Below are positions 3 to 56,831 of a DNA stretch of 64,000 bases, in pieces. This DNA comes from a candidate division WWE3 bacterium (GTDB lineage Bacteria; Patescibacteriota; WWE3; UBA101185; UBA10185): positions 730,919 to 794,918 of the forward strand of contig WJKK01000001.1 in NCBI GenBank assembly GCA_014729135.1, read 5' to 3'. Position numbers and translations under genes: made by a program. The notes under the pieces are model-generated. The model was not told the DNA's origin. It did not search any database and was given only the letters and a program-made list of their open reading frames with translations. The stretch's first letter is position 1. Every line of letters begins with the position of its first letter.

Positions 3-869
3 GTCGAGATTGCTGGACAGAATCCCAAGGGTACCGTCAACTTCCTTCGCATGGTTCGGAAGGTTGAGATGGTTGAATGGTCTTGGAGTGACAAGTTGGG
101 TAGCCGAAGCCGTCGCCCTGCCTGCTTGGTAATTACTCGCAAGGGTGACATTTATCGTTTTACCGGCAGCGATATCGAGGGCGTTGTCAAAGTCGTAAAC
201 TCCAACTACGTCAAGCAAGGTAAGTGGAGCCACACGACCTTCCATTGCATCTCTCCAGAAGGAACCAAAATCTACTCCTGGAGCCAAAGCTGGGGCGAAG
301 GTTTGTTTTGGCCGCAGGCTTCCTGGGAGGAGGCCATAGCCGAAATTCAGAATGCAGCTCCGCAGGCTAAAGCCCAGGCTGTGGAGAACGTTATAAGGGA
401 AAACTGGCCCCATGCGGCCGGAAAGTTCGACGAGAATCGTGCAGCAATGCACGCATTCGCCGGTGTCGAAGGCCCTATGGAATGGACATGGAACGATGGG
501 CTCGCAAGTCGAAGTCGCCGTCCTGCCTGCCTGATAATCACACCCCAAGGGGATGTGTACCGATTCGAAGGGGGTGACATCGAGGGTGTGGTTAAGGTTA
601 CGAAAGAGGACTATGAGAAAAACGGGAAGTGGAGCAATTCTACCTACCACTGTGTTTCTCCCTCCGGGTCCATAATCTACTCCTGGCGACAGAGTTGGGA
701 AGAAGGTTTGTTCTGGCCACAAGCTTCTTGGGAGGAAGCTATCACCGAAGTTCAACAGGAAGCTCCCCAAGCGAAACCAGAGGCCATTGAGGCTATCATC
801 AGGGAACACTGGAGCAGGGCTGCTGAGAAATTCGATGAGAATCGTGCAGCAATGCAAGCTTTTTCTTAA
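3..869 (+). CDS. Hypothetical protein with two tandem ~136-aa internal repeats (5' partial, ORF open to window edge)
   Basis: ORF 51..869 is open upstream to nt 3 with no stop. The protein holds two highly similar repeats ('WSW.DKLGSRSRRPACL.IT..GD.YRF.G.DIEGVVKV...Y.K.GKWS..T.HC.SP.G..IYSW.QSW.EGLFWPQASWEEAI.E.Q..APQAK...'), each ending '(K/E)FDENRAAM.AF'. Confidence 0.55.
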   Translation, partial: VEIAGQNPKGTVNFLRMVRKVEMVEWSWSDKLGSRSRRPACLVITRKGDIYRFTGSDIEGVVKVVNSNYVKQGKWSHTTFHCISPEGTKIYSWSQSWGEGLFWPQASWEEAIAEIQNAAPQAKAQAVENVIRENWPHAAGKFDENRAAMHAFAGVEGPMEWTWNDGLASRSRRPACLIITPQGDVYRFEGGDIEGVVKVTKEDYEKNGKWSNSTYHCVSPSGSIIYSWRQSWEEGLFWPQASWEEAITEVQQEAPQAKPEAIEAIIREHWSRAAEKFDENRAAMQAFS

Positions 870-1425: not shown

Positions 1426-1454
1426 TTGACAAAATCACCCCAAACACTTATATT
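1426..1454 (+). promoter_or_regulatory. Sigma70-like promoter (TTGACA-17-TATATT) upstream of rpmF
   Basis: TTGACA at 1426-1431, a 17-nt spacer, TATATT at 1449-1454. A second TATAAT with an upstream TG lies at 1471-1480. Location upstream of the L32 gene. Confidence 0.35.
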
Positions 1455-1606: not shown

Positions 1607-1762
1607 ATGCCGGTACCAAAAAGAAAACACAGCAAAAGACGAAGCAAAATAAAGCGCTACAACCACTACATCCGTAAACTTAAAAAAAAGGTTAAGAATG
1701 TTGTAAAGGTAAAGGAGGGAGTGTACAAACGACCTCATGTGGAGGAGGAAGTCCAGATTTAA
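1607..1762 (+). CDS. rpmF: 50S ribosomal protein L32 (51 aa; missing from the ORF track, below its size cut-off)
   Basis: Translation is MPVPKRKHSKRRSKIKRYNHYIRKLKKKVKNVVKVKEGVYKRPHVEEEVQI*. The N-terminal 'PKRK.SK.R' is the L32 signature. A spaced RBS 'aaaggaaaaactaaa' precedes the ATG. Confidence 0.6.
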   Translation: MPVPKRKHSKRRSKIKRYNHYIRKLKKKVKNVVKVKEGVYKRPHVEEEVQI

Positions 1763-1848: not shown

Positions 1849-2301
1849 ATGCCCGGAAAAACCGACAAAAGACACTTAGCACGCAAAATAGCACTAGGCA
1901 CACTCTACTGCTCCTCCGAAAGCAAAGAAATCCCCATAGAAACCTGCCAAACTCTAGCAGAAGAAACCCTCGAAATAACCCAAACCCAAGAGAAAAAAGA
2001 AGAATACGACCAAGAACTGGCCAAAGAGCTCATCCAAAAAACCCCCGAAAACAAAGAAAAAATTAATCCCATCATAAAAGAATGCGCCCCTCAATGGCCC
2101 CTAGAAAAAATCTTTAAAATCGACTTAATAATATTACAAATAGCAATCTACGAACTCTTGATAAAACAGAACACACCCGATAAAGTAGTTCTAGACGAAG
2201 CCGTAGAACTTGCCAAAGAATACGGCAACGACACATCAAGTAGTTTTGTAAACGGCGTCTTAGGCACCGTTTTTGAAAGAAAGGACAAATATGTATCTTA
2301 A
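1849..2301 (+). CDS. nusB: Transcription antitermination factor NusB
   Basis: 150 aa. 'LARKIALGTLY', 'DLIILQIAIYELL' and 'DEAVELAKEYG...SSFVNGVLG' fit the NusB family. Confidence 0.7.
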   Translation: MPGKTDKRHLARKIALGTLYCSSESKEIPIETCQTLAEETLEITQTQEKKEEYDQELAKELIQKTPENKEKINPIIKECAPQWPLEKIFKIDLIILQIAIYELLIKQNTPDKVVLDEAVELAKEYGNDTSSSFVNGVLGTVFERKDKYVS

Positions 2302-2518
2302 AAAAGTTCAAAAAGTTATATTGGAAAAGACAGGAATTGAGCCTGAAGAGGTAGAGCCGGCAGATTATTTTGCAGAGGATTTAAATCTGGGCGAACTGGA
2401 GTTGCAGGAAATTCTGGAGGCTCTGGAGGAGGAGTACGAATTGGAGCTAACGGAGCGTATAGAGGAAATTGAGACAATTGAGGATTTGGTGACGCTTTTA
2501 TCGGAGGAGCTGGACTAA
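2291..2518 (+). CDS. Acyl-carrier-protein-like small acidic protein lacking the phosphopantetheine serine
   Basis: Aligns to ACP helix II: 'FAEDLNLGELELQEILEALEEEY' versus E. coli '[23 protein letters not shown]'. The DSL serine is replaced by Glu. Sits directly upstream of rnc, as acpA does in Bacillus. Confidence 0.5.
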   Translation: MYLKKVQKVILEKTGIEPEEVEPADYFAEDLNLGELELQEILEALEEEYELELTERIEEIETIEDLVTLLSEELD

Positions 2519-2566: not shown

Positions 2567-3265
2567 ATGCAACATTATATAGACACAAAAAAACTAGGTG
2601 AGATCCTGGAAATAGAGATTAAAAAGGAGAATTTATTCACTAAGGCGTTTACGCATCGCTCTTATTTAAACGAGCATCCGACTTATGAGTTTCCTTCAAA
2701 TGAGCGGTTGGAGTTTTTGGGAGATGCGGTTTTGCAGCTAATTTCCTCTGAGTATCTTTTTGGAAAGTATGAAAATCCTGAAGGTGACTTAACTAATTTT
2801 AGGGCAGCTTTGGTTTGCACTAAGTCGCTGGCGCAGGAAGCACGCCGCCTAGGTTATGGTGACTTTTTGCTGCTTTCTAAAGGGGAGGAGGCCACAGGAG
2901 GACGTAACCGTCAGTACATTTTAGCTAATACTTTTGAGGCGGTTTTGGGCGCCATATACCTCCAGGAGGGCCTAGAAACATGTCAAGAATTTGTAACTAG
3001 AGAGCTTTTATATAAGGCAGATAAAATTATTGAGGAGGAAACCTATAAAGATGCTAAATCTCAGTTTCAAGAGGAGGCGCAGGAAAAACTGGGAGTAACT
3101 CCGCAGTATAAAGTGCTGGATTCTTGGGGACCCGATCATGAAAAGCAATTTAAAGTTGGCGTTTACTTGGCACGTGAAGAATATGGAGTGGGCCAAGGCT
3201 CCAGTAAACAGAAAGCAGAGCAGCAAGCAGCCGTTAAGGCATTGGACAAGCTAACCACTGTTTGA
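2567..3265 (+). CDS. rnc: Ribonuclease III
   Basis: 'ERLEFLGDAVLQL' RNase III signature, with a C-terminal dsRBD-like region. Confidence 0.85.
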   Translation: MQHYIDTKKLGEILEIEIKKENLFTKAFTHRSYLNEHPTYEFPSNERLEFLGDAVLQLISSEYLFGKYENPEGDLTNFRAALVCTKSLAQEARRLGYGDFLLLSKGEEATGGRNRQYILANTFEAVLGAIYLQEGLETCQEFVTRELLYKADKIIEEETYKDAKSQFQEEAQEKLGVTPQYKVLDSWGPDHEKQFKVGVYLAREEYGVGQGSSKQKAEQQAAVKALDKLTTV

Positions 3266-3279: not shown

Positions 3280-3648
3280 ATGTCAGTAACAATAAGATTA
3301 GCGCGAATAGGAAAGAAAAACGCACCGGCCTATAAAATAGTTGCAGCTCAAACCCGCACAAAGAGGACCGGTAAATTTCTGGACGTCCTGGGCTATTTCA
3401 ATCCGTCAGAAGGAAACGACGTTTATGAGATAGACATGGACAAATATCAAGATTGGAAAAATAAAGGTGCTCTCTCTACGGAAGCTGTGGAGAAGTTGAT
3501 TGAAGGCACCTATGAATATAAAGTTTATAACCCTAATGCTGAGGAAGAGGTAGAGGAAGAACCCAAGGAGGAAGCGGAAGCGACTCCAGAGGAGGATTCC
3601 ACTGAAGCTGAAACTGAAGCGGGGGAAGAGAAGGAGAACAATAAATGA
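3280..3648 (+). CDS. rpsP: 30S ribosomal protein S16 with acidic C-terminal tail
   Basis: 'MSVTIRLARIGKKNAPAYKIVAAQTRTKRTGKFLDVLGYFNP' matches S16. The C-terminus is Glu-rich and low-complexity. Start chosen at the internal Met of ORF 3262. Confidence 0.85.
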   Translation: MSVTIRLARIGKKNAPAYKIVAAQTRTKRTGKFLDVLGYFNPSEGNDVYEIDMDKYQDWKNKGALSTEAVEKLIEGTYEYKVYNPNAEEEVEEEPKEEAEATPEEDSTEAETEAGEEKENNK

Positions 3649-4055
3649 AAGAATTTGTTCAGTACCTAGTACAAAGTATTGCAAAACATCCTGAGGATGT
3701 TGAAGTAGTTGAGAAGCAACTCGACGAGACCTATATTAAGGAGGAAATTTCAGTTCACCCTGATGACATGGGTCTTATTATTGGGCGAAACGGCCGCACT
3801 ATTCGTAGTGTGCGTGAGTTGGCTAAGGCAAAGGCTATTAAGGCTAATGTTAAGGTTGACGTTGAGCTTTTGGAGCCTGACCGAGAGGAGAAGGGCGTTA
3901 AGGAGGCTGTAGAGGAGGCTGCTGAAGAAGTGGCTGACACTGCAGAGGAGGTTGTTGATTCCGTTGAGAATGAGGTTAATGAGATGGCGGAGGAGCTTAT
4001 GGATATGGTTGAGGGTGATGATGAGGCTGATTCCGAGGAGGTTGAGGCTGCTTAA
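3645..4055 (+). CDS. KH-domain RNA-binding protein (YlqC/UPF0109-like) with acidic tail
   Basis: 'LIIGRNGRTIRSVRELAKA' GxxG KH motif. Lies between rpsP and trmD as in the conserved operon. ATGA overlap with rpsP. Confidence 0.7.
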   Translation: MKEFVQYLVQSIAKHPEDVEVVEKQLDETYIKEEISVHPDDMGLIIGRNGRTIRSVRELAKAKAIKANVKVDVELLEPDREEKGVKEAVEEAAEEVADTAEEVVDSVENEVNEMAEELMDMVEGDDEADSEEVEAA

Positions 4056-4162
4056 GCTTTAAGTTAGTTAACGAGAAGGCAATTATTTTCTTCTTTTTAA
4101 ATAAAGGAGGAACTTGAAACCCCCACTTTGTGGGGGTTTTTTGTTATTGCTATAATCTAAAC

Positions 4163-4843
4163 ATGCTAACCATAAACATAATCACATTATTCCCTGAGCT
4201 CATAGAACCTTACCTTGAAAGACTCCCCTTTAGTAGAGCCATTGAAAAGGGAGCATTAGAAGTAAATTTAATCCAACTTAAAAACTATGCAATTGATGAG
4301 CGGGGAACAGTTGACGGCAGGCCTTATGGAGGGGGAGTGGGGATGCTTTTACGAATTGAGCCGGTTTGGCAAGCTTTGGAAAGTGTTTATGGCGCCTTTG
4401 ATAATCCCGAAAAAATACAGGCAGATTTAGAAAACACAATTATTGGCTTAACCCCTTCAGGAAAAACTTTTACTCAAAAAAAGGCGCAAGAACTTAGCAA
4501 AAAATCAACTATAACTTTAATTTGCGGGCGTTACGAAGGGATGGATGCACGAATTAAGCAGCATTTAACTACAGAAAACATCTCCATTGGGAACTATGTG
4601 CTTTCAGGTGGAGAAATTCCGGCTTTAGCTATTATGGAGGCAGTTGTGCGACTCCTCCCGGAGGCTATAGAAAAGGAAGAGGCAACCCTGCTGGAGTCTT
4701 TTTCACAGGGGCTTGATCAAAAAAAGGAATACCCGCAATTTACACGCCCTGAAACCTACAAAGGATTGGCGGTACCGGAGGTGCTACTTTCAGGCCATCA
4801 CGAGAAGATAAAAAAATGGCAAAAAGATCAAATTAACTCTTAA
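4163..4843 (+). CDS. trmD: tRNA (guanine37-N1)-methyltransferase TrmD
   Basis: 'MLTINIITLFPEL...GRPYGGGVGMLLRIEPV', SPOUT TrmD family. Start taken at the internal Met. Confidence 0.85.
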   Translation: MLTINIITLFPELIEPYLERLPFSRAIEKGALEVNLIQLKNYAIDERGTVDGRPYGGGVGMLLRIEPVWQALESVYGAFDNPEKIQADLENTIIGLTPSGKTFTQKKAQELSKKSTITLICGRYEGMDARIKQHLTTENISIGNYVLSGGEIPALAIMEAVVRLLPEAIEKEEATLLESFSQGLDQKKEYPQFTRPETYKGLAVPEVLLSGHHEKIKKWQKDQINS

Positions 4844-4844
4844 A

Positions 4845-6881
4845 ATGTCTCAAACTTTAGAAATACTACTGCATGACGGAATAAACTATCTATTGCCGCT
4901 AAACCTCTTTAATTTCGTAATGTTGGTAACAGGATTACCCCTGGGATTAAAAATCGCAAAAAAAGAAGTAAGCCACATAAGCACAGTTAGTTTAATTTTA
5001 GTAGGATACACAACCTTTGCATTAAATCATTTAAACTCACAACTATTTCCATTTAATAAAAAAACCTTACTTATAATCCTGGCTCTATGGTCAATCACAA
5101 ATGCGATTATTTGTTTTAAAGACAAAAACCTACAGCTAATTAAAACCAAGGCACTCCTAAAATATTCTCTTGCTTTCCTTTTAATAAGCACTTTCCTATA
5201 TCTGCTTAAATCCTTTGAACCGGAAATAAATCACATAGAAAGAACCATGAGCTTGGGAATTTTAAACGCGTTGGAAAAAACAACCAAACTACCTCCTAAT
5301 GATTTTTGGCTGGCAGGAAAGCAGCTTAACTATTATTATTTTGGCCATTTTTTGATAAGTAGCCTGCTAAAGCTAACACAAATACAACCTGTACCCGGAT
5401 TTTATGTAGGAACTATCTGGATGTATACAACCTTTATGCTCCTAACTTACACCACTGCAAAAAACTTATATGAAAAATTCTCCTCCAATAAAAGTGGGCA
5501 AAAAAAAGAGGCGGCACTTATAAGCACTTACTTCGTAACTCTGGGGGGAACACTGTATCCTTTTAGGTGGTTTATAGAGAATGTTATTAGACTGCTGGAA
5601 AAGCAAAAAGCAGTATCTTTTTTGTTTACGGAAGCTATAAGACCCAATAACCATAGACTTCTAGATATTCCACTATATAGCTTTTTATTTCATGAGTTAC
5701 ATGCGCATACTTGGGGGTTTATATTGGGCCTTATGATAATTAATGCTTTAATTCAATTAAAGAGTAGCCACATAAAAAAGGAGTTCGCTAAAATCGCATG
5801 GACAGGGTTCCTATTGGGAATAACTTTTATGACTAATTCTTGGGACACATTAACATTAGGAGTGCTCGTGGGAAGCACAATACTCTTTTACCTGAAGCCT
5901 AGAAAATTCGACCTGCAAACAATAGCAAAAAAAATAACGGGAATACTAGCGGTAATCACAATCGTTCTTATAACAGCACTGCCCTGGAAAAGCACCTTTA
6001 CATCTCCTATAACAGGAATAGCCATTACAGGAAACTCAACACCAATAATGCTATTACTTAGCTACTGGGGAACTTTTTTAGGAACCCTGATCCTGTACTT
6101 AATAGCGCAAATAAAATCAAAAAGGAAAGTTTGGTCCGTAAAGAAACCGGAGATCACTTTTCCACTCGTCATCCTGCTTATAGGAATAGTGCTACTAATC
6201 GCTATAGAAATATTTAGTGTAAAAGACCTTTTGGTAACAGTACAAAACAATGGATTTAACACTTTCTGGAAAACAAGCTTGCAGGTATGGATATGGTTTA
6301 ACCTTTTTACAGGAATCTTCCTAGTAGAGGCCTACAAAAAAACCAAGAACAAAAGGCTCTATGCAATTCTTTTTATGGTACTTATATTTACAACGGCCAA
6401 TTTCAGCGGAAAGATGCTTTTTCAAGGTGTTTTTAAGGATAAAAAGTTCTCCGGAATAAAAAATGGATTAGCCTTTTGGCAGGAAAGTTACCCCCAAGAA
6501 TATGAAATTTACAACTACTTAAAATCCCAAGAAGCGGACTCAAGTTTGGTCATTGCAGAAGCCCCTGGGCAAAGTTACACACATTACAACCTAATGTCGG
6601 CATTCGTAGGAGCCGAATCAGTATTAGGATGGTACACCCACGAGATAACATGGAGAAATGAGCCAACGGAACTTAAAAGGAGGCAAAGGGACTTGTATAA
6701 ACTATATACAAAAGCTTCGGTGGAAGAGGCGAAAAAAATAGTGCAAGACTACAAAATTGACTACATCATTGTTTCCGATAAAGAGAGAGAGACCTACAAG
6801 GATTTAAATGAGAAAACTTTAAGCAGGATAGGGAAAGTAGAATATAAAACCAAGGACATACTGCTTATCAAGGTAATTTAA
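4845..6881 (+). CDS. Large polytopic membrane protein, possible GT-C-type glycosyltransferase (ArnT/YfhO-like)
   Basis: 678 aa with more than 12 predicted TM helices, then a soluble C-terminal domain. No firm catalytic motif recognised. Confidence 0.3.
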   Translation: MSQTLEILLHDGINYLLPLNLFNFVMLVTGLPLGLKIAKKEVSHISTVSLILVGYTTFALNHLNSQLFPFNKKTLLIILALWSITNAIICFKDKNLQLIKTKALLKYSLAFLLISTFLYLLKSFEPEINHIERTMSLGILNALEKTTKLPPNDFWLAGKQLNYYYFGHFLISSLLKLTQIQPVPGFYVGTIWMYTTFMLLTYTTAKNLYEKFSSNKSGQKKEAALISTYFVTLGGTLYPFRWFIENVIRLLEKQKAVSFLFTEAIRPNNHRLLDIPLYSFLFHELHAHTWGFILGLMIINALIQLKSSHIKKEFAKIAWTGFLLGITFMTNSWDTLTLGVLVGSTILFYLKPRKFDLQTIAKKITGILAVITIVLITALPWKSTFTSPITGIAITGNSTPIMLLLSYWGTFLGTLILYLIAQIKSKRKVWSVKKPEITFPLVILLIGIVLLIAIEIFSVKDLLVTVQNNGFNTFWKTSLQVWIWFNLFTGIFLVEAYKKTKNKRLYAILFMVLIFTTANFSGKMLFQGVFKDKKFSGIKNGLAFWQESYPQEYEIYNYLKSQEADSSLVIAEAPGQSYTHYNLMSAFVGAESVLGWYTHEITWRNEPTELKRRQRDLYKLYTKASVEEAKKIVQDYKIDYIIVSDKERETYKDLNEKTLSRIGKVEYKTKDILLIKVI

Positions 6882-7315
6882 GAGGAGGGAGATTCTGTAA
6901 GGGGAAGACAGGTGCCGGAACCATCGCATTTTTCAACCATACCCGCGGTGGAATCGTATTCATAAGTACCCCCATCTGATGCGGGACCAACCACAACAAA
7001 ACTGCTGCCTGAGGGGGAAGAATAAGTGTAAGTGTCGCCCTCTTGGGGAGAGTCATCGGGCCAGCTTGTAACATAGGGGGAGTCGGCTAAAGTTGATTGA
7101 TCGGGATAATAACCTTCTAACAAATAAAACGATTCGGCTGCCTCCGCAAGCTTTTTAACATTAGCAATTCGCACAGAATCGCGCGTTTGATTCCTGTAAA
7201 ACTCTGGCTTTAGGACCGAAAAAACCACTCCGGATAAGATCCCCAAGAGAACTACTACTATAAGAAGCTCTACCAACGTAAAACCTGCCTTTTCTTTTCC
7301 TAAAAAATTCAACAT
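6878..7315 (-). CDS. Type IV pilin-like protein (prepilin leader + GFTLVELL)
   Basis: N-terminus '[24 protein letters not shown]' is a class III signal peptide with Glu at +5. Paralogous to the N-terminal half of 7324..8352. Confidence 0.75.
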   Translation of the reverse strand: MLNFLGKEKAGFTLVELLIVVVLLGILSGVVFSVLKPEFYRNQTRDSVRIANVKKLAEAAESFYLLEGYYPDQSTLADSPYVTSWPDDSPQEGDTYTYSSPSGSSFVVVGPASDGGTYEYDSTAGMVEKCDGSGTCLPLTESPSS

Positions 7316-7323
7316 AATAATTG

Positions 7324-8352
7324 TTACTGAAACACGGGAGTTCCTGTAGCCCCGCCCGATTCAAGGCATTGTGCACCAGAACAGATATAGGGGGAACAGC
7401 AATCACTATCCCCGGAACAATAACCACCCAAGCTCTGGCAAGGCTCCATACATCTATCTGATATACAAACATAACCGGAACAACAGTCTGAATCGTCCGA
7501 ACAGGGATCGTAGTAGCCCTCACATTCCAAGCAAAGGTTCTCATAGCAACTGCTGCCAGTGGAGTCTCCGCAGCACTGAAAGTCATAATCGCAGGAGGCT
7601 CCGGTAGCACCACAGCAATCAGCATCCGCATAGTCGGTATTTCCATCACAGTCATTATCCACACTATCCGAGCAACTCGACTCTGAACCAGTCTGGCAGT
7701 CAGTATCGGCACAATCAACAAAACCGTTGCAATTATTATCAACACCGTCTGAGCAGGAAACCTCAGTATCTCCTTGACAATCCAGGTCGGCGCAGTCAAT
7801 AAGGCCATCGCAATCATTATCCGTACCATCAAAACAGGCAACTTCTATAGGATCGCAACTTGGCGGTGTAGTACCACTACCAGTGCCATCACCGAAATCA
7901 AATGAAGTATCTGTTGCTAAACCTCCAGAAAGACCCTCACAGATCCCTCCTAAACATTCGTATAACTGTCCGGTATCTGAATGATATTCATAAGTCCCTC
8001 CGGATGAATTTGCTACTGAAACCGTAAAAGCACCGGAAGTGTAAGAATAAACATAAGCATCGTCACCAGTGGGAGAGCCGTCTGGCCAGTTTGGTAAATA
8101 GTCAACTGCAGCAAGGGCGGCCTGACTTTCTGGATAGCCTCCTTCTAAATTTGCATACACTTCTGCGGCGTCCGCTAACTTTTTCACGTTGGCTATTCGT
8201 ACAGAATCCCGTGATTGGTTTCGAGCAGCTTCAGGACGTATAACTGTTAAACCAACAGCTGCTAAAATCCCCACTAAAACAACAACAATGAGAAGCTCCA
8301 CCAAAGTAAATCCATACTTTCTATCTTTAATATCTTTTAATAGTACTTGCAT
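7324..8352 (-). CDS. Type IV pilin with C-terminal Cys/Asp-rich calcium-binding-like repeats and knottin-like modules
   Basis: '[22 protein letters not shown]' prepilin N-terminus. C-terminal 3x 'C.DG.DNDCDG..DC.D.DC' and 3x 'C...D.DCC.G..C....C' motifs. Confidence 0.7.
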
Positions 8353-8354
8353 AC

Positions 8355-9218
8355 TTATTCAGCTTCCGGTGTGGCTGCGGGAGCTTCCGATTCTTCCGCA
8401 GAGCCCTCCTCAAGTTCCTCCGGGGGAGTTTCCTCTACAACTATGTAATCCTCGGGAGAAATATCATAATGCCTTAAACTCTTAACCTTCTCTATAAAAG
8501 CGGTGAATTGAGGACTTGCAATATCGAGCTCAATGACCTCGTCGGTTACTGCATCTGCACGCACATCCAAATAGGGGGAAATCAGCTTAAAATTAGCAGA
8601 AAAGCCTGTCGCATCTTCCTGTTCGCTTTTGTTATAGCGGAAATCTTCCACTACAACTAAGCGGGAGGCATTTTCAACCCTTTGCATTAAGGCCAAAAGA
8701 CCTTGACGGGGTCCTAAAGCCTCCAAAGATACGGTCACATTTTCGTAAGAAACATTTTGGGCGCCTCCGGAGGGATCTGAAGAACTTGAGGAACCTACAG
8801 CGGGTACAGCTGAGCTACTCCCTTTGCTGTATGCAAGTTGCTCTACACCTAAAACGGATTCCCTTGCCATCAAATCTACCTGAGCTAGAAGCTCAGGAAC
8901 TGTTGGTTCGGACACTAAAGTCTTGTTTATAAAATCAGAATACTCCCGAACAACTTCTTCTAAATCAACCAGTAAATTAAGCGTGGAAACTTTGGTTTGC
9001 AACTGGCGGGAAAGATGCTGCTTCTCATCTAGGTTCTCTTGGATAAGAGGCATCTCCTGATATTTAGGGAAAAGGACTAAAAAAAGTAACAAGCCGGTAG
9101 CAATAAGCGAGATCAAAGGTATTAAAAAGTTTAACAAAAAGCCAGTCACCTTAGAAAGATCAAAGCCTTTTACATTAAGGCTATCTAAATTAACTTCTTG
9201 ATTTAAATCCAAAGCCAT
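8355..9218 (-). CDS. pilO: Type IV pilus assembly protein PilO-like (with acidic C-terminal tail)
   Basis: Single N-terminal TM plus a coiled-coil, directly downstream of pilM and pilN. Overlaps the pilN stop. Confidence 0.55.
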
Positions 9219-9826
9219 TAAAACCCTTTCTTTAAAGCCTCCCCGTTATAAGTAATGGAAATCACGTAATCTACAGTGGAATCGTTAGAATTTAAGGTCA
9301 CTGAGTTTAGGTAGGCCGTTTTAAAAATTGGAGTTTTTGAAGCACTTGGAGTTGATTCGTTAATAGAAGGATCTAAAACCTCCTGTTTATTTAAGTTAGC
9401 TAAAAATTCAGAAACCAGTAAGTAATTGGAGGCTCTTCCCGACACCGAAAGCTCCGAAGGTCCTTCAAAAGAAAAGGACGTCACCTCCACACCCTCCGGA
9501 ATACGCGAATTAAAATCCGCTAACAAATCCGAATAATACAGTCGAGAATTTAAAATCCCCGACAAAGCCTGATACTTTTTATACAAATTACGTGCCACAA
9601 TTTCCGTTGAAGCCATTCCCTTAATTTCAGAACGCGCCTTCTCAATACGGGATTCCTCCACTTCTATCTGCTTTTTTAAATCAGCTACCTTGAAATAAAA
9701 GTAAGCGCTAACACCGGCAACCAAAACAAACAAAACAATAGAAATAATTGAACTAAACTTAATAGCCTTAGTTTTAAACTGCTCAACTTTTTCTTCTTTT
9801 GTTAGTAAGTTTATGTCTGAATTCAT
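9218..9826 (-). CDS. pilN: Type IV pilus assembly protein PilN-like
   Basis: Short cytoplasmic N-terminus, one TM ('IISIVLFVLVAGVSAYFYF'), a coiled-coil, and the characteristic position after pilM. Confidence 0.55.
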   Translation of the reverse strand: MNSDINLLTKEEKVEQFKTKAIKFSSIISIVLFVLVAGVSAYFYFKVADLKKQIEVEESRIEKARSEIKGMASTEIVARNLYKKYQALSGILNSRLYYSDLLADFNSRIPEGVEVTSFSFEGPSELSVSGRASNYLLVSEFLANLNKQEVLDPSINESTPSASKTPIFKTAYLNSVTLNSNDSTVDYVISITYNGEALKKGF

Positions 9827-9886
9827 TTTTTCCTTTTTAAAACTTCCCGTAACTTCCGCCTAAAAATCCTCCGGCTACCGCAAACC

Positions 9887-10954
9887 CTAAGAAACCTTCA
9901 TGGCCAATCCCACAGGAACAGCATAAATAGGGCCTTTCCTATGAAAATCATCCTTAGAAGTATCTACCGAATCCAAATTTAAATTTGTCCAGGGATTAGC
10001 CAGCTCCACCTCCACGTCAAAATTATTCACCATGTATAAAAGTAAACCGGGCATAAGGGCAGTTTCTCCTGAAACAACTATCTTATTTATTCTAACATTT
10101 GGATTGTGTGTCGTAAAAAACACTTTAGACTTTTTAATTTCTGATATAAGCCGATCAAATAAGGGATGCAGGGCCTCATAAACTTTGCCTTCTACTTTGG
10201 ATTTGTCCAGACCGTAGCTATTCTTGTATTCTTTAGCACGAGTCATATCCAAATCCATTTTTTGGGCTAGGCTCTTTGTAAGCGTCAGATCTCCAAGAGG
10301 AATAGTGCGTGTTAAGATCACAAAACCTTTATAGGCCAAAACTATTAGAGTCTCTTTGGGACCAATTTCTATAACTAGCTCTGCCCCGGTAGCATGCATG
10401 TCGCCTCCTAAAGCACGTGTCATGGAAAGGGATTCGGGCTCTAAGGCACGCGGAGTTAGCCCAGCCTCTTTAACGATTTGTATGTATTTTTGAGATACAG
10501 TTTTTTTAGCGGCTACTAGCAAAACGCTTGTTTTATCCTGATCCTCTAGATCCAAGTTCATAACGGCATAACCAAGTGTCACCTCCTCCAAGGGAAGGGG
10601 GATGTACTGTTCGGACTCGTATTTAATAAAGTTATCTAGGTCTTTTTTGCTCATATGAGGAACTTTTATGGTTCTAACAAAGACCTGATCTTGAGGAAGA
10701 CTTACAATTGCATCAGTTGATTCAAAGTTAAAGTCAAAGAGAAACTTTTTTAGCTCTCTAGAATAGTGAGTACGGTTTTCTTCATTTTCTATATCTAAAG
10801 TAAAATTGGGCATCTCATGGGATCCCCAATTTAAGAGTGAGTTTTTGGATTTTTTCTTTTCAACTTCAACAGCACTAAAACCGTTAGTTTTAAGGTGAAG
10901 ACCTAGGGCAGACATATTTATATGATAATGCTTAAGGCTCCTTTTATCAATCAA
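9887..10954 (-). CDS. pilM: Type IV pilus assembly ATPase-fold protein PilM
   Basis: 355 aa with an actin-like fold pattern ('LVIEIGPKETLIVL', 'IVVSGETALMPGL'). First gene of the pilMNO trio. True start may be an internal Met. Confidence 0.65.
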   Translation of the reverse strand: MIDKRSLKHYHINMSALGLHLKTNGFSAVEVEKKKSKNSLLNWGSHEMPNFTLDIENEENRTHYSRELKKFLFDFNFESTDAIVSLPQDQVFVRTIKVPHMSKKDLDNFIKYESEQYIPLPLEEVTLGYAVMNLDLEDQDKTSVLLVAAKKTVSQKYIQIVKEAGLTPRALEPESLSMTRALGGDMHATGAELVIEIGPKETLIVLAYKGFVILTRTIPLGDLTLTKSLAQKMDLDMTRAKEYKNSYGLDKSKVEGKVYEALHPLFDRLISEIKKSKVFFTTHNPNVRINKIVVSGETALMPGLLLYMVNNFDVEVELANPWTNLNLDSVDTSKDDFHRKGPIYAVPVGLAMKVS

Positions 10955-11035
10955 TTACTTGTTAAGAAGAAGACTAGAAAAGATTTTCAGTTTTACACTC
11001 TAAAACGAAGAGTAAAGAGTTTAGAAACAGTAAAC

Positions 11036-11587
11036 TTAGTAGGAACCCCTCACAGTAAAGGTATCGCTTATGTAGTCCTCTGCTGCAAAGATGCTTCCAA
11101 CAGGGGCATTAACTTGAAAGATGTGAAGATTAACATCAACTCTATCGGGAACTCCCGCTGCAGATGTGACCTGAAAACAAGAACCCGCACATTCTACAGC
11201 CACCCCTCTCTCGGCATCTACATCCAAAAGAGATACAGGGGATCCTGTTTGATCCTGCCAAGTAAAAGATGTGGGAGCAGTGGTATTATCCACTTGGTAG
11301 GTTATTCTATAACCATTACGCTTAGTTAAACGCAAAGTTCTATTGTTTCCTGTTGCTTGAGCCGAAACCGAATTTTTGATGTCGTTTTGCAGTTTTAAAA
11401 AGATAAAGTTGGTAATCTGCTCTACTTCGTTAGCTGCTTGAGTTCTAGTATTAGTGCGTACAAGTGTAATTATTATGTCAGTCGACAATCCTATTACAAC
11501 TGATAAAAGGGCCACAGACACTAACAATTCCACAAGTGTAAAACCTTTAGTATTTTTAGTTTGTTTTTTGTTTTTGCTTACAACCAT
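11036..11587 (-). CDS. Minor pilin / pseudopilin (PilW/GspJ-like)
   Basis: '[21 protein letters not shown]' prepilin N-terminus. Confidence 0.6.
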   Translation of the reverse strand: MVVSKNKKQTKNTKGFTLVELLVSVALLSVVIGLSTDIIITLVRTNTRTQAANEVEQITNFIFLKLQNDIKNSVSAQATGNNRTLRLTKRNGYRITYQVDNTTAPTSFTWQDQTGSPVSLLDVDAERGVAVECAGSCFQVTSAAGVPDRVDVNLHIFQVNAPVGSIFAAEDYISDTFTVRGSY

Positions 11588-11593
11588 GAAGTC

Positions 11594-12178
11594 CTAACGA
11601 ACACTCCAATTGGATAACTGCGAGTAATTATGTGTAAATTTTGTTTCTCCACCAATTTCCCAGGTAGAAACGGCTATAACATTAATTACCTCAGTATTTC
11701 CGGAAACTGTTTCAAAGTAAATACAGGAGGTTATACCGTCAGATGCAGCAGGCAAACCTTCAACAAGCGAAATTCCGTCATTAATGTAGCAAGATCCTGC
11801 ATCAGAACAGTCAGTAGTGCAATTTAATCCGGATGCATAAAGATAGAAGTCCTCCCAAGTTGCGGACGTAATGTAGTCATCCCGCAAAGCTCGTGCTCTT
11901 TCAAGCTGTTGATTAGTTAGGCGAGTTCCCTTTACAAGACGCTCATTAACTGTGGAGGTTCTCAGCGTAAAAACTGCTAAGGAAACCATGGCTGTTACAA
12001 TAATTATACCCACCCCTAAAGCTATGATGACTTCCACCAAACCTATCCCTTCCTCCCTTGACTTTTTTGCTAGGCAATTTCCAGGGATTATCCTTGGTTG
12101 AAATACGCCTTCTCTCTCTAAAGAGAGGCGAAAGTGCGTTTGGGACAAAGGATGATCCTTGCAAACCTTTAAGGACAT
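11594..12178 (-). CDS. Minor pilin / pseudopilin (PilV-like)
   Basis: 'EEGIGLVEVIIALGVGIIIVTAMVSL' prepilin-type helix with Glu at +5. Long leader; start uncertain. Confidence 0.5.
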   Translation of the reverse strand: MSLKVCKDHPLSQTHFRLSLEREGVFQPRIIPGNCLAKKSREEGIGLVEVIIALGVGIIIVTAMVSLAVFTLRTSTVNERLVKGTRLTNQQLERARALRDDYITSATWEDFYLYASGLNCTTDCSDAGSCYINDGISLVEGLPAASDGITSCIYFETVSGNTEVINVIAVSTWEIGGETKFTHNYSQLSNWSVR

Positions 12179-12702
12179 GTAACTCCCTCTTCAACTAAAA
12201 GCCCTCCCGGAGTATTTGCCAAAATAGAAACACATTCAGCACCGGTTGCATCGGATTCTCCAATAATTACAAAACAATTAGATCCGTTTGCATCACAGGG
12301 GGTTGCCGGACTCCCTCCTGTTGTGTAAGCGTTTCCTGTAAACATGTCAAAAAGAATAACGTTGGAATTTTTAACCTCAATATCTCCTATTAAGGGATCA
12401 AACGTATCCTCTTTGCTAAAGGAGTCCAAGGCTTCCGAAAACGTGTATAAATCATAGGCATTGGTTCCATCTGCAAATTGAACACCCCAATAACCCACGC
12501 CGGCATCGGCAGATTTTAGGCCACCCAAAGCATTGTTTTGGGCTGAACGAAGGCTATCTTTTAGTTGCGCTGTAGACTGTTTTAAGTTTTGGTTTCTTGT
12601 GTAATTGGTAAATCCGGGAATAGCAGCACCGGCTAGGATTGTTATGAGAGAAACTACAATTAAAAGTTCTACAAAGGTGTAACCATGGACAGATTGTTGC
12701 AT
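12169..12702 (-). CDS. Minor pilin / pseudopilin (FimT/GspH-like)
   Basis: 'VHGYTFVELLIVVSLITILAGAAIP' motif. Start moved to the internal Met so it does not overlap the upstream pilin gene. Confidence 0.55.
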   Translation of the reverse strand: MQQSVHGYTFVELLIVVSLITILAGAAIPGFTNYTRNQNLKQSTAQLKDSLRSAQNNALGGLKSADAGVGYWGVQFADGTNAYDLYTFSEALDSFSKEDTFDPLIGDIEVKNSNVILFDMFTGNAYTTGGSPATPCDANGSNCFVIIGESDATGAECVSILANTPGGLLVEEGVTCP

Positions 12703-12758
12703 GGATTTATGATAGCACAATCTAGGGATAGGGGAGGGGCTAACGGAGAAAAAGGGAT

Positions 12759-13202
12759 TTAGGGATTGGTGACGCCGTAACAGGGATCGTAGTTGTCGGT
12801 AGAGGAACAACCCACGCCATTACCGGAGGAGGTTATTTCTACTTGAGATACTATTGTATAAGTGGAGCCATCAGAGGAGTTGTAAAGGTAAGGAGAGCTT
12901 GCTCCGGAGGGGTCTTGAGGAACGGGATTCATGTAGCTTGATAAAGCAGCAACTCCCGAAATATCTGCCCAGGAATGCGGATTAGGATACACTCGATTGT
13001 CTGCAAAGTACAATTCCAAACCTGCTTGAATACGCTTTAAATCAGCAATTCTTTGCTTGTCACGCGTTTTAGCACGCAACGCCTGTGGATTTAGTACTTG
13101 CAAAACTATACCGGACAAAATTGCAATAATAGAAACCGTTATCATCAGCTCTATTAAAGTAAATCCTTTTTTATTTTTTAGATTTTTAAGTCTTTTTAAC
13201 AT
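12759..13202 (-). CDS. Type IV pilin / pseudopilin
   Basis: 'KKGFTLIELMITVSIIAILSGIV' prepilin N-terminus. Confidence 0.7.
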   Translation of the reverse strand: MLKRLKNLKNKKGFTLIELMITVSIIAILSGIVLQVLNPQALRAKTRDKQRIADLKRIQAGLELYFADNRVYPNPHSWADISGVAALSSYMNPVPQDPSGASSPYLYNSSDGSTYTIVSQVEITSSGNGVGCSSTDNYDPCYGVTNP

Positions 13203-13213
13203 AGGTCACACAA

Positions 13214-13238
13214 CCGCCCCCAAGAGGGGGCAGTTTTT
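13214..13238. terminator. GC-rich hairpin + T-run between major pilin gene and next pilin gene
   Basis: ccgccccc-aaga-gggggcag, then TTTTT on the + strand. An A-run precedes it on the - strand, so it could act in both directions. Confidence 0.4.
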
Positions 13239-13247
13239 ATGATTAAA

Positions 13248-13688
13248 TTAGTCGATCACACAAGTTCCAACAGGAGCTACCTGTGTAGCAGCACCAGTCG
13301 TAGTGTTATAAGTGCACTGGAACGAACAGGTCGGAGAAGCGGCTGCATCTGCCCCTGTAACTGTGATTGTGGGTGCGGAATAGCTGACCGAATAGCTTGA
13401 ACCGGTGGGTGTGCCACTAGGATCATTAACACCAACATCTGAGAGAGTCACACAATCGGTACCGGGAGCCTGCCTGGAAGCAGCACAAGCATGCATGGCT
13501 AAACAAATCTTATCTGTGTTAGCACGCAAAACGGTCTGATTAGCCTTAGTTCTGGTCTCCGCAGGATTAATAACTGAAATAACAACTCCAGCTAAAATAC
13601 CAATAATAACGATAACAATTAAAAGCTCGATAAGTGTGAAACCTTCCTCACGTGAACTCTTTGTCCAAAAATTAAATTTTTTATTCAC
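13248..13688 (-). CDS. Type IV major pilin candidate
   Basis: 'EEGFTLIELLIVIVIIGILAGVV' N-terminus. 146 aa, Cys pair near the C-terminus, followed by a hairpin. First pilin of the operon, after the PilX-like gene. Confidence 0.7.
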   Translation of the reverse strand: MNKKFNFWTKSSREEGFTLIELLIVIVIIGILAGVVISVINPAETRTKANQTVLRANTDKICLAMHACAASRQAPGTDCVTLSDVGVNDPSGTPTGSSYSVSYSAPTITVTGADAAASPTCSFQCTYNTTTGAATQVAPVGTCVID

Positions 13689-20203: not shown

Positions 20204-21061
20204 TTGAGTCAGGACAACCAATATATTACCGTACAAGAGCTTTGTAACTGTTTAGATATTTCAAAATCCTCCATTTATTATGAAAAGAAGCTTCCCAAAA
20301 AAGACTTGAAGCTAAGTAAGCAAATTATTGATGTAATTAACAAGAATAAGACATATGGTCACAGACGGGTTGCCTTAGAGCTTAACATTAACAAGAAAAG
20401 GGTACTTAGAGTAATGAGGCTATTTAATATCAAGCCCTTAATAACCAGGTCTAAAAAGCCCCGATATAAATATAAGAAGGGAGAGTCTAGATTTGAGAAT
20501 CTAATTAAGACTATATGTCCAATAAGGCCTTATGTAATATTAGCTACTGATTTTACCTATTTGAGGTTTAAAAATTCCTTTTTGTATTTAGCTACTGTAT
20601 TAGACATATATACTAAGGAAATATTGGGTTATGCGGTTTCTACCAGACATACTCAAAACTTAGTATTAGAGGCTGTTAAATATGGATTAAGTAAATGCAA
20701 AACCTTACCTCTTTTTATACATTCTGATGAAGGTAGCGAATACATGTCAGATGCGTACATAAATTATGTACACTCCCAAAATATTGAACTATCAACAAGT
20801 GATATTGCTTCCCCTTGGCAAAACGGATTTAAAGAATCCTTTTATTCCCAATTTAAACTTGATCTGGGTGCAAAGAATCTAAACAGATTTGATACCTTGG
20901 GAGAAGTTGTAGGACATATTTATAAAACAATCTATTATCACAATAACCAAAGAATTCACACGACTATAAAAACACAACCTGTTAAATTTAGAAATCAAGA
21001 ATTAGCTAAATGGTCTGATGTTTGTTGTGATAGATTGGTGTCCAAAAAAATGGGTACTTGA
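20204..21061 (+). CDS. IS3-family transposase OrfB (integrase core, DDE)
   Basis: 'HRRVALEL...VLRVMRLFNIKP', 'ATDFTYL', 'HSDEGSEYMSDAY', 'SPWQNGFKESF' rve-domain motifs. Frame is open back to 20168. TTG start in the track. Confidence 0.75.
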   Translation: MSQDNQYITVQELCNCLDISKSSIYYEKKLPKKDLKLSKQIIDVINKNKTYGHRRVALELNINKKRVLRVMRLFNIKPLITRSKKPRYKYKKGESRFENLIKTICPIRPYVILATDFTYLRFKNSFLYLATVLDIYTKEILGYAVSTRHTQNLVLEAVKYGLSKCKTLPLFIHSDEGSEYMSDAYINYVHSQNIELSTSDIASPWQNGFKESFYSQFKLDLGAKNLNRFDTLGEVVGHIYKTIYYHNNQRIHTTIKTQPVKFRNQELAKWSDVCCDRLVSKKMGT

Positions 21062-26576: not shown

Positions 26577-27410
26577 TTATAAGTACCAATTTAAGAACAA
26601 GTCTCCTGCTACAAAAACCAGAAGACTGCCTAGAATCATGAAAGGGCCAAAGGCAATCTTATCCTTCATTCCTTTTTTGCCTAGGGCCATCAATCCCAAA
26701 CTTACAACAGATCCTAAAACAAAAGAAGAGAAAATTGCAATAATATTGTAGGGAAAGCGGTTAAAAAGTCCTATTAAAAAAGCAAGGCGAACATCGCCAA
26801 AACCCATCCCTTTACCCTTAGTAATAGCATGTAAAAACCAAAAGAAAAGACCTAAAGAGACTGCAGAAACAACGTCAGACGATTTAAAACCAAACACCAC
26901 GTAGAAAACTCCAACCACTGCCAAACCTGTAAAAATAGCTTCATTAGGAATAATTTGATATTTGGTGTCTGCTAAAAAGATAACGATATATACCGAAAAG
27001 ATTAGTAAAAAATAGGCAAATAGCAAAACCGGATAGATATTGAAGCCCAAACCAAAAGCAGAACCCAGGGATCGAACTAAACCCGCATTTAATCCGGAAT
27101 GCAAAGGGGCGCCACCAAAAACTCCTGATGAAACTGCAGCCAACAAGAATATAACTCCTGTTAAAACCTCCGATAGGGGATAGGCCACTGATAAACGCTC
27201 GCTGCAGTAGCGACATTTCCCCTTGTTAAACACAAAAGAAAAAACGGGAATTAAATCGGCAACTTTTAAAACGTTGTCGCAAAAATCGCAATGAGACCGA
27301 CCAAATAAAATGGATTCTCCTGAAACCAAGCGATCAGCAACTAGATTTAAAAAGGACCCCACAAAAAGCCCCATGACAAAAACAAAAAAGTAGTAAAAGT
27401 ATATCTCCAT
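26577..27410 (-). CDS. pilD: Prepilin peptidase PilD (A24 family)
   Basis: 'CDFCDNVLKVADLIPVFSF...CRYCSERLS' tetracysteine motif and 'GMGFGDVRLAFLIGLF' catalytic Asp region. Start taken at the internal Met. Confidence 0.8.
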   Translation of the reverse strand: MEIYFYYFFVFVMGLFVGSFLNLVADRLVSGESILFGRSHCDFCDNVLKVADLIPVFSFVFNKGKCRYCSERLSVAYPLSEVLTGVIFLLAAVSSGVFGGAPLHSGLNAGLVRSLGSAFGLGFNIYPVLLFAYFLLIFSVYIVIFLADTKYQIIPNEAIFTGLAVVGVFYVVFGFKSSDVVSAVSLGLFFWFLHAITKGKGMGFGDVRLAFLIGLFNRFPYNIIAIFSSFVLGSVVSLGLMALGKKGMKDKIAFGPFMILGSLLVFVAGDLFLNWYL

Positions 27411-27481
27411 TAAAGTGTTCTCAATTTTAAAGTAGTCTCGGATAGCGTTTAAAACTTGGCATCCCCATATCAAAGAACCGG

Positions 27482-27991
27482 CTACAAACTCAAGTCAGTC
27501 CCAATCTCATATAAACCGGGAGAAACTCCACCATCAAGACGCATTTTGTTAGCATTATCCGCCGACTCCAAAGGCACGCTCAACTTAAACTTTTGAGTTT
27601 GACCATTTGCCACAAATTCATAAACATAAGGCTTCTCGTTAAGGGAATCTATGGGCAATTGATTCAAATATTTACGCAATCCGGGAGTTTCCTCCATAAC
27701 ATTAAACTTTACCCAGCCTTTTCCATCCACTTTAAAAGAACCGGTTAAAGTGGTGCAACTATCACAATCTGAAGTATCCTCCAAGGTAATAAGCTCTTCT
27801 GCCAAGGAAAGCTGCAAGGCCTTGTTAAGTTCATCCAAATCCTGGATTCTTTCGGCATCTCGACTTTTTGCAAGAATTGCCTGCGGATCTATGGCTACAA
27901 AGAGTATTCCGGTTATTGCCACCGCAACTCCTAAAACAATTATTAATTCGGGAAGTGTGAAGCCGGTCTTTTGGCAGGTTTTTTTATTCAT
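27482..27991 (-). CDS. Type IV pilin / pseudopilin
   Basis: 'KTGFTLPELIIVLGVAVAITGILFVAI'. Start taken at the internal Met (MNKKTCQ). Confidence 0.65.
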   Translation of the reverse strand: MNKKTCQKTGFTLPELIIVLGVAVAITGILFVAIDPQAILAKSRDAERIQDLDELNKALQLSLAEELITLEDTSDCDSCTTLTGSFKVDGKGWVKFNVMEETPGLRKYLNQLPIDSLNEKPYVYEFVANGQTQKFKLSVPLESADNANKMRLDGGVSPGLYEIGTDLSL

Positions 27992-28034
27992 ACACCTAGT
28001 ATAACAAAGTAGAAAAGTAGGACGGAAAAGAGTT

Positions 28035-28101
28035 AGGCTGTGTTTCTTTCGAACGAATTTTGGCGTACTCGCCAACCTGAGAGAGAAAGAACATACAGCC
28101 T
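28035..28101. repeat. Long imperfect hairpin between pilC and pilin gene
   Basis: aggctgtgtttctttc (28035-28050) / gaaagaacatacagcct (28085-28101), with a 34-nt loop. Confidence 0.4.
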
Positions 28102-28136
28102 AACTCGCCCCCTTGCACTACTCCCAGCTTAAAAAA

Positions 28137-29339: not shown

Positions 29340-29351
29340 AAACTTCTTTTT

Positions 29352-30410: not shown

Positions 30411-30419
30411 ATTATTTTG

Positions 30420-54675: not shown

Positions 54676-54762
54676 TGGTGGGCGAGGAGGGAATCGAACC
54701 CTCACAGGATTGCTCCCATCGGTTTTTGAGACCGACGCGTATACCAGTTCCGCCACTCGCCC
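54676..54762 (-). tRNA. tRNA-Leu (anticodon CAA), type II with long variable arm
   Basis: Minus strand GGGCGAG-TG-GCG..CGC-G-TCGGT-CTCAAAA-ACCGA-(17-nt variable arm)-GAGGG-TTCGATT-CCCTC-CTCGCCC-A-CCA. All stems pair. Anticodon loop is CT-CAA-AA. Confidence 0.85.
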
Positions 54763-56780: not shown

Positions 56781-56831
56781 TTTAGATGTTTTGTACAGTT
56801 TAGTCGGTTAGGCGAAAAACCGGCTAAACCT

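Follow-up and report, generated by a model that had tools for sequence, protein, structure and literature searches.

What remains of an acyl carrier protein (ACP) when the serine that bears its prosthetic group has disappeared, and why would a bacterium keep such a protein? The question is raised by a short gene, called the ACP-like gene below, that lies directly upstream of rnc in the genome of a candidate division WWE3 bacterium (NCBI GenBank assembly GCA_014729135.1, contig WJKK01000001.1). We analyzed a stretch of 64,000 nucleotides (nt) from this contig, positions 730,919 to 794,918 of the forward strand, which is referred to here as the window and numbered from its first letter. In our assessment, the ACP-like gene is very probably a Ser-less positional orthologue of the housekeeping ACP gene (acpP or acpA) that is kept under selection. 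The ACP fold and superfamily are known already, as is the concept of an ACP without phosphopantetheine in the organelles of apicomplexans; a bacterial housekeeping ACP that is fixed in the apo form throughout a clade seems not to have been described before. We found no description of a Ser-less ACP in the literature on ACPs of the candidate phyla radiation (CPR) or Patescibacteria, and a study that names 'acpP' among the genes transferred into Patescibacteria does not comment on the motif (PMC12455944).

The open reading frame (ORF) of the ACP-like gene extends on the + strand from an ATG at 2291 to a TAA at 2516-2518, with a Shine-Dalgarno-like AAGGA at 2281-2285, 6 nt 5' of the start. Its product of 75 amino acids (aa), MYLKKVQKVILEKTGIEPEEVEPADYFAEDLNLGELELQEILEALEEEYELELTERIEEIETIEDLVTLLSEELD, contains 26 Asp and Glu residues against 5 Lys and Arg, giving a net charge of about -21 and an isoelectric point (pI) of 4.05 that equals the pI of Escherichia coli ACP (4.05) despite six extra acidic residues. 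Judged by sequence profile, the homology to ACPs is real but weak. The Pfam PP-binding model (PF00550) aligns its positions 2-67 of 67 with residues 5-70 at 25.4 bits, above the gathering cut-off of 20.8, and 11 NCBIfam ACP models score 34-46 bits, all of them under their curated cut-offs of 66-106 (the equivalog model TIGR00517 gives 43.9 bits and does not reach its cut-off of 70.45). A phmmer comparison with the PDB recovers ACPs at E = 1e-8 to 1e-6. An AlphaFold2 (AF2) model built on 50 relatives has a predicted local distance difference test score (pLDDT) of 95.2 and a predicted template modeling score (pTM) of 0.82, and DSSP assigns it four helices at residues 2-14, 35-49, 54-59 and 63-74. 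When this model is compared with the PDB using Foldseek, the top 50 matches are all ACPs, with template modeling (TM) scores of 0.77-0.90 and root-mean-square deviations (rmsd) of 1.2-1.9 Å. In NCBI the protein is labeled 'acyl carrier protein' [candidate division WWE3 bacterium] and lies on a contig of 864,248 bp.

The fold is preserved and the attachment site is gone. In the phmmer matches to the PDB, solved ACPs align gap-free with the ACP-like protein over the helix II region, FAEDLNLGELELQEILEALEEEY (a 23-letter stretch in E. coli), and the ACP motif EDLGADSLD becomes EDLNLGELE. Gly34 takes the place of Asp35 of E. coli, and Glu35 (GAA, 2393-2395) that of the phosphopantetheine-carrying Ser36, such that Gly34-Glu35-Leu36 stands where ACPs have Asp-Ser-Leu. 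The sole Ser of the protein is S71 in helix IV, and a shift of register therefore cannot place Ser at the N-terminal end of helix II, which in the AF2 model begins exactly at residue 35, i.e. at the attachment position. It is established ACP biochemistry that without the Asp-Ser site there is no phosphopantetheinylation and hence no acyl carriage. With this site gone, the ACP-like protein therefore cannot become a holo-ACP or carry acyl groups. An earlier note on this DNA had described an ACP homologue whose attachment Ser was changed to Glu; sequence (PF00550), fold and position all bear out the homology, and the gap-free alignment and the single Ser confirm the replacement, with no alternative register available.

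The same loss is found across a large family. An exhaustive HMMER search of 1.8 billion cluster representatives with the ACP-like protein gave 587 hits at E < 1e-3, and many of the best short hits carry DDLN-x-[GST]-[ED]-x-E where ACPs have EDLGADSLD. The relatives were then widened by profile search, and 249 distinct short sequences were pooled and aligned to E. coli AcpP, from which column statistics were obtained for 184 distinct family sequences and for 57 canonical ACPs of the same pooled set (positions below follow E. coli numbering). The Asp-Ser pair occurs in none of the 184 family sequences versus all 57 canonical ACPs. At position 36, the Ser column, the family has Glu in 55%, Asp in 26% and Lys in 5%, with Ala, Gln, Pro, Asn, Gly, Leu and Arg also present, while the canonical ACPs have Ser in 100%. 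The survey of relatives that the earlier note had called for thus yields an acidic residue in 81% of the family and Ser in just two members. Unlike canonical ACPs, in which position 35 is Asp in 100%, the family prefers a small residue there (Gly 46%, Ser 24%, Thr 19%, Asp 5%).

Other positions are retained or have become characteristic of the family. Asp31 and Leu32 are present in 100% and 98% of its members (98% and 100% of canonical ACPs), and position 33 is Asn in 100%, compared with Gly in 49% and Asn in 42% of canonical ACPs. The acidic residues of helix II (D38, E41, E47 and E48 in E. coli), which form the surface on which ACPs dock with their partners, are kept: Glu38 in 93%, Glu or Asp at 41 in 96%, Glu47 in 91%, and Glu or Asp at 48 in 90%. 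Position 34 is hydrophobic, position 27 aromatic, and position 74 acidic in 97% of the family versus Glu in 22% of canonical ACPs; 56% of the members are one residue shorter between helices II and III. All 184 ORFs are intact, with lengths of 69-120 aa (nearly all 75-89 aa), and six length/motif groups can be told apart by eye: a WWE3-type of 75-79 aa, a group of 79 aa with Lys at the Ser column, and groups of 80, 83, 84 and 89 aa. A strictly phosphomimetic role of Glu35 was set aside, as the Lys-bearing subfamily disfavors it and the column also accepts Ala, Gln, Pro, Asn, Gly, Leu and Arg.

Source names of the family sequences are WWE3, Curtissbacteria, Gottesmanbacteria or plain Patescibacteria, and public annotations call them 'acyl carrier protein' or 'hypothetical protein'. 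We also applied the pattern [DE]DLN[IL]GE[LMI]E, derived from a 13-sequence subset, to a genome collection in which each GTDB species is represented once. The scan gave 27 loci, all in metagenome-assembled genomes labeled WWE3, 'Patescibacteria group' or 'uncultured Candidatus Saccharibacteria', a number that reflects the one subfamily covered by the pattern and is no census.

Two otherwise canonical-looking ACPs encountered in this work lack the Ser and retain Asp35. P0084 (L043 5001-5228) reads DADELD; the contig that carries it is phage-like, with genes for AntA/ANT and MT-A70 and numerous small ORFs. P0148 (L042 5001-5237) reads GADDLD and comes from a 126-kb replicon (CP134613.1) on which no fab gene lies close to it. 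A tblastn search against a phage collection, made as a follow-up of these Ser-less ACPs with Asp35, returned no match. Such Ser-to-acidic variants of ACP may recur on mobile elements, perhaps as ACP mimics.

The ACP-like gene is under strong purifying selection at the protein level. Estimated by the Nei-Gojobori method on the four closest pairs, the only ones with unsaturated synonymous distances (synonymous substitutions per site, dS, of 1.1-1.5), the ratio of nonsynonymous to synonymous substitution rates (dN/dS) is 0.038-0.056. Mean protein divergence over 23 genomes is 0.83 for the ACP-like protein, 0.80 for the product of the nearby KH gene and 0.71 for ribosomal protein S16. The low dN/dS, the neighbor-like divergence and the intact ORFs therefore exclude a relic or a mere leader of rnc, and the pseudogene and leader-ORF readings, both considered, were dropped as contradicted by this analysis.

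Gene order also bears on the identity of the ACP-like gene. Wherever the locus of a relative extends to both neighbors (35 loci), the order is nusB, ACP-like gene, rnc, and the distance from the ACP-like gene to either neighbor lies between a 26-nt overlap and a 48-nt gap. Adjacency to nusB was recorded at 28 of 28 loci in the first set and subsequently at L029-L038 and L040, except L036 (P0136), where no nusB was called and there is just a gap between recG and the ACP-like gene; rnc is the 3' neighbor in every locus extending that far. The 27 loci from the pattern scan have rpmF(L32)-nusB-ACPlike-rnc-rpsP-KH(KhpA)-trmD wherever they are long enough. The block is also seen in relatives of all six length/motif groups and at the loci of the two Ser-bearing members, P0092 and P0136; in the contigs of these other groups it mostly comes after tyrS or trpS, recG and occasionally rsmD, and pilO/N/M lie beyond it on the opposite strand. 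In the window itself, the 11-nt overlap between nusB and the ACP-like gene suggests translational coupling of the two.

The earlier note had compared the place before rnc with that in Bacillus, and the comparison holds: the acpA-rnc-smc-ftsY operon of Bacillus subtilis has rnc in second place, and a bicistronic acpA-rnc mRNA has been detected (PMC4838370). In E. coli the gene order is rpmF-plsX-fabH-fabD-fabG-acpP. The wider order in B. subtilis is recG-fapR-plsX-fabD-fabG-acpA-rnc-...-ffh-rpsP-ylqC(khpA)-rimM-trmD. The CPR block looks like this ancestral ACP array minus plsX and the fab genes, with nusB in their place. Because it matches the ancestral order, the ACP-like gene is best regarded as a positional orthologue of acpP/acpA and not as a stray carrier-protein paralogue.

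Essentially all of the approximately 60 ORFs of the window, which represents 7% of the 864-kb genome, were scanned with Pfam, and none of them is a fab, plsX or acpS/sfp gene or encodes another PP-binding protein; the absence of fab genes noted earlier is thus upheld within the 64 kb. Genes identified in the window are those of type IV pili, gyrB, gyrA, dnaB, DNA polymerase III delta', a murein ligase, IMPDH, Lgt, LspA, EF-P, hisS, an AbiE toxin-antitoxin pair and an insertion sequence (IS) element. Likewise, no genes for holo-ACP synthase or ACP-dependent enzymes were seen in the flanks of the related loci examined. The accompanying suggestion that the lineage lacks fatty-acid synthesis is in line with published surveys of CPR genomes, which report the absence of ACP synthase and ACP-using enzymes (PMC7242380); Probst et al. 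found ACP synthase and FabD lacking in CPR genomes. CPR bacteria presumably obtain their lipids from other cells, and lysolipids are enriched in them (PMC7242380).

Compared with the housekeeping AcpP/AcpA (PF00550, TIGR00517), the ACP-like protein shares the four-helix fold (TM 0.83-0.90, rmsd 1.2-1.6 Å, approximately 30-36% identity), the acidic helix II, and a place before rnc as in B. subtilis and 3' of rpmF as in E. coli. It differs in having Gly-Glu for Asp-Ser, in scoring below all curated NCBIfam ACP cut-offs, in a locus without nearby fab, plsX or acpS, and in its own Asn33 and acidic position 74. Its sequence and structure matches in the PDB include ACPs in complexes outside fatty-acid synthesis (FAS), namely 9gm6, 5wgb, 8tvt, 7bvc, 9mx0 and 6sga. 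Among known complexes of this kind (MukBEF-AcpP, Nfs1-ISD11-ACP, mycobacterial EmbA-EmbB-AcpM and MmpL5-AcpM, and mitoribosome assembly factors), the ACP fold similarly serves as a small acidic adaptor, but the ACP there bears the Ser, is usually holo or acylated and also serves FAS, whereas the ACP-like protein is apo only. The uncharacterized Pfam family DUF1493 (PF07377) is a weak precomputed match for the 83-aa CPR subfamily; the protein of the window matches PP-binding instead of DUF1493.

The closest precedent is the mitochondrial ACP (mACP) of Plasmodium falciparum, which has no phosphopantetheine group, is essential, and binds and stabilizes Isd11-Nfs1 (Falekun et al. 2021, PMC8547962). 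In both cases an ACP homologue without phosphopantetheine is kept where type II FAS (FASII) has been lost, with a FAS-independent role in Plasmodium and, as proposed below, in CPR bacteria. The Plasmodium protein is eukaryotic and its partner is the LYR protein Isd11 with Nfs1, whereas the ACP-like protein is bacterial and its replacement is mostly acidic. In Plasmodium mACP, the Ser is replaced by a hydrophobic residue (Phe).

We propose the following model for the family. In a CPR clade comprising WWE3/Katanobacteria and Microgenomates-type lineages, the housekeeping ACP has lost its Asp-Ser site and is retained by selection as a folded, extremely acidic protein of four helices, one that would be obligatorily apo. 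The acidic face of helix II, together with family-specific residues, would bind one or more basic partner proteins and stabilize or regulate them, and the FAS-independent 'moonlighting' side of ACP would in this way have outlived fatty-acid synthesis. The acidic residue at the old Ser site may just cap helix II, or may mimic the phosphate of holo-ACP. Selection retains the fold, the acidic helix II, the surface around Asn33, position 36, Glu38 and the C-terminal acidic residues, a set that fits a protein binder, and we judge it reasonably probable that the ACP-like protein acts as an apo-only protein-binding subunit. The idea of a repurposed protein, raised at the outset in the earlier note, has gained strength from the clade-wide Ser-less form, the dN/dS of 0.04-0.06 and the conserved residues that the family has of its own. 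Co-transcription and probable translational coupling with nusB and rnc would make the transcription and processing of rRNA the first place to look for a partner, while any specific partner that we could name is unlikely to be the right one.

Several points weigh against this model. The link to nusB and rnc may be inherited gene order alone, as acpA and rnc are ancestrally adjacent in Firmicutes and ACP works there as a normal carrier. A mirror-tree analysis with partial correlation, comparing the ACP-like protein with L32, NusB, RNase III, S16, the KH protein and TrmD in 23 genomes, gave no clear co-evolution (partial r of 0.26 for rnc, 0.23 for KH, 0.21 for L32 and 0.15 for NusB). The absence of fab and acpS genes covers 64 of 864 kb, which leaves room for a second canonical ACP with acpS elsewhere in the genome. 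Partner binding is something that we infer, and several moonlighting contacts of ACP need the phosphopantetheine arm, for example that of apicoplast ACP with PKII (PMC13574338).

Other explanations of the locus were weighed with the same data. The ACP-like protein could be an ordinary carrier whose loss of Ser is merely apparent, owing to a sequencing error, another alignment register or another modified residue. The public name 'acyl carrier protein' and the Ser found in the attachment column of two of the 184 family members (P0092 and P0136) speak for it, but both of these members lack Asp35 (they read GSL and TSL), the change is common to the other 182 independent sequences from many samples, and the column accepts Glu, Asp, Lys, Ala, Gln, Pro, Asn, Gly, Leu and Arg. 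As the one Ser of the protein lies in helix IV and the site aligns gap-free, we regard this explanation as having almost no chance of being correct, and the register shift was rejected on these same grounds. Scarcely more credible is the idea that the gene is in decay, or is translated merely as a leader that serves rnc expression, with no function for the protein itself. It would agree with a lineage that has lost fatty-acid synthesis, and since the acpA-rnc mRNA of B. subtilis is a target of RNase III autoregulation (PMC4838370), the upstream ORF could matter as RNA alone. Against it stand the low dN/dS and the 184 intact ORFs described above, the near-invariant Asp31, Leu32 and Asn33, the conserved acidic positions and a model with a pLDDT of 95.

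Two further explanations accept a folded and selected protein and differ in what it would do. The first is a narrower form of the proposed model: the ACP-like protein could be a dedicated subunit or regulator of rRNA transcription and processing that binds NusB and/or RNase III, for example as an acidic cap or nucleic-acid mimic on the surfaces with which they bind RNA, or that chaperones the basic proteins L32 and S16 of the same operon. NusB and RNase III both act on nascent rRNA, their genes enclose the ACP-like gene at all 35 informative loci with gaps of -26 to +48 nt, the charge of about -21 would suit such a role, and rnc has the top partial correlation in the mirror-tree analysis. That correlation is weak, however, and indistinguishable from noise, NusB (pI 5.0) and RNase III (pI 5.15) are not unusually basic here, and gene order alone proves nothing because the acpA-rnc operon of B. 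subtilis encodes an ordinary carrier ACP. To our knowledge, no ACP interaction of this kind with the NusB/RNase III machinery exists in any organism, and we consider the explanation rather unlikely. More doubtful still is its broadest form, in which the CPR ACP would be an obligatory apo-only subunit of the rRNA machinery (acting on NusB and/or RNase III, or on the ribosomal proteins of adjoining genes) and the acpP-rnc and rpmF-acpP linkages would reflect an ancient tie between ACP and ribosome biogenesis. The ACP-like protein could alternatively bind salvaged lipids (fatty acids or lysolipids) non-covalently in the hydrophobic pocket of the ACP fold and pass them to membrane acyltransferases without a thioester arm. 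The reported lipid uptake and lysolipid enrichment of CPR bacteria (PMC7242380) and the retained fold with its hydrophobic core residues would allow for this. The operon and the window contain no lipid-metabolism gene, however, and several pocket-lining positions are bulkier in the family (E. coli A59 to Lys, Ile or Leu, and A68 to Leu), which would suggest a filled rather than an open pocket. We also know of no ACP that carries lipids without a phosphopantetheine arm, and we consider lipid handling improbable. The apo-only protein binder remains the reading that we carry forward.

The coordinates of the ACP-like gene, its lost attachment site and the surrounding block are listed in the table. 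The promoter-like site upstream of rpmF could be the start of the operon and the hairpin after the KH gene its end, as judged from consensus matches; promoter-like sites are no more numerous in this region than in shuffled sequence and thus constitute weak evidence.

Table. Features of the ACP-like locus, in window coordinates
Feature	Position	Strand	Evidence and remarks
ACP-like gene (serine-less ACP homologue)	2291..2518	+	75-aa ORF, Pfam PP-binding, PDB matches, AF2 model
Degenerate motif D30-L31-N32-L33-G34-E35-L36-E37	2378..2401	+	counterpart of ACP D-L-G-A-D-S-L-D; gap-free alignments
Helix II ('recognition helix'), residues 35-49, ELELQEILEALEEEY	2393..2437	+	DSSP on AF2 model; acidic residues kept
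rpmF (ribosomal protein L32)	1607..1762	+	Pfam Ribosomal_L32p; conserved 5' of nusB in related loci
nusB	1849..2301	+	Pfam NusB, 106 bits; 3' end overlaps start of ACP-like gene by 11 nt
rnc (RNase III)	2567..3265	+	Pfam Ribonucleas_3_3, 137 bits, plus dsrm; 48 nt 3' of ACP-like gene, same frame
rpsP (S16)	3280-3648	+	Pfam; in conserved block by synteny
KhpA-type KH-domain gene	3645-4055	+	Pfam; in conserved block by synteny
trmD, last gene of conserved block	4160..4843	+	Pfam tRNA_m1G_MT, 168 bits; alternative GTG start at 4130
Promoter-like site TTGACA / 17-nt spacer / TATATT, 5' of rpmF	1426..1454	+	11 of 12 consensus positions; possible operon start
Terminator-like hairpin, 11 pairs then T run, after KH gene	4116..4140	+	consensus match only; possible operon end

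Some members of the block have features of their own. The nusB gene (region 1740-2301, gene 1849-2301, + strand) has third codon positions with 49% A, 36% C, 5% G and 10% T, and its synonymous codons are correspondingly skewed (GAA:GAG 18:2, AAA:AAG 17:1). A third-position (G+T-A-C) index is -0.70 for nusB, and the 61 remaining ORFs of the window range from -0.19 to +0.49. The bias reverses precisely where nusB meets the ACP-like gene, with GC skew changing from -0.37 to +0.39, and the ACP-like gene has C at just 4% of its third positions and a GAG:GAA ratio of 16:6. In eight related genomes nusB lacks this bias, which has the pattern of excess sense-strand transitions from G to A and from T to C; antisense transcription, strand-specific deamination and selection for unstructured mRNA are possibilities. 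S16 (122 aa) and the KhpA-type KH protein (136 aa), encoded at 3280-4055 (+), have long and highly acidic C-terminal tails, ending in ...EEEVEEEPKEEAEATPEEDSTEAETEAGEEKENNK and ...EEAAEEVADTAEEVVDSVENEVNEMAEELMDMVEGDDEADSEEVEAA, respectively; their homologues in several related loci are much shorter (74-85 aa).

Elsewhere in the window, two large type IV pilus clusters lie on the - strand at 6878-13688 and 26577-32192. One contains at least seven genes for pilin-like proteins that have methylation motifs at the N terminus, along with PilM/N/(O), one of the pilins being Cys-rich and 342 aa long, and the other contains prepilin peptidase, PilC and two T2SSE-family ATPases, presumably PilB and PilT; pilMNO directly after trmD is also conserved in related loci. 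The ORF at 51-869 (+) encodes 272 aa in two tandem copies of approximately 135 aa (WxWxDxLxSRSRRPACLxIT...GKWSxxTxHCxSPxG...FWPQASWEEAI...FDENRAAM), without a significant Pfam match and with a GC content of approximately 0.53, above that of the rest of the window. Unusual domain combinations are present in the ORF at 50690-51832 (-), where an N-terminal prolipoprotein diacylglyceryl transferase (Lgt) is joined to a C-terminal DksA/TraR C4 zinc finger next to a short signal peptidase II (LspA) gene at 50352-50693, and in a 942-aa protein at 45359-48187 (-) that combines a HerA/TrwB-like ATPase (DUF87, TrwB_AAD_bind) with a C-terminal S1 RNA-binding domain. Mobile and defense genes at 20204-21061 (+), 41665-42645 (-) and 55998-57479 (-) comprise an IS-type integrase (rve), a XerC/D-like tyrosine recombinase and an AbiEi/AbiEii pair. 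The sole tRNA gene of the window is tRNA-Leu(CAA) at 54676-54762 (-).

ACPs are among the most abundant and most connected of bacterial proteins, and their carrier role and their moonlighting contacts are hard to separate because the carrier role is essential. A clade without fatty-acid synthesis that dropped the site of the prosthetic group and yet kept its ACP under selection represents a natural separation experiment. As annotation pipelines label the family 'acyl carrier protein', counts of 'acpP' in metabolic reconstructions of Patescibacteria and in gene-transfer surveys may mislead. If an apo-only role in the rRNA machinery were true, it would mean that ACP remained tied to ribosome biogenesis even after fatty-acid synthesis had been lost completely. 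More generally, the partner of the ACP-like protein would reveal a function of ACP that is indispensable apart from lipid synthesis, as Plasmodium mACP did for eukaryotic organelles.

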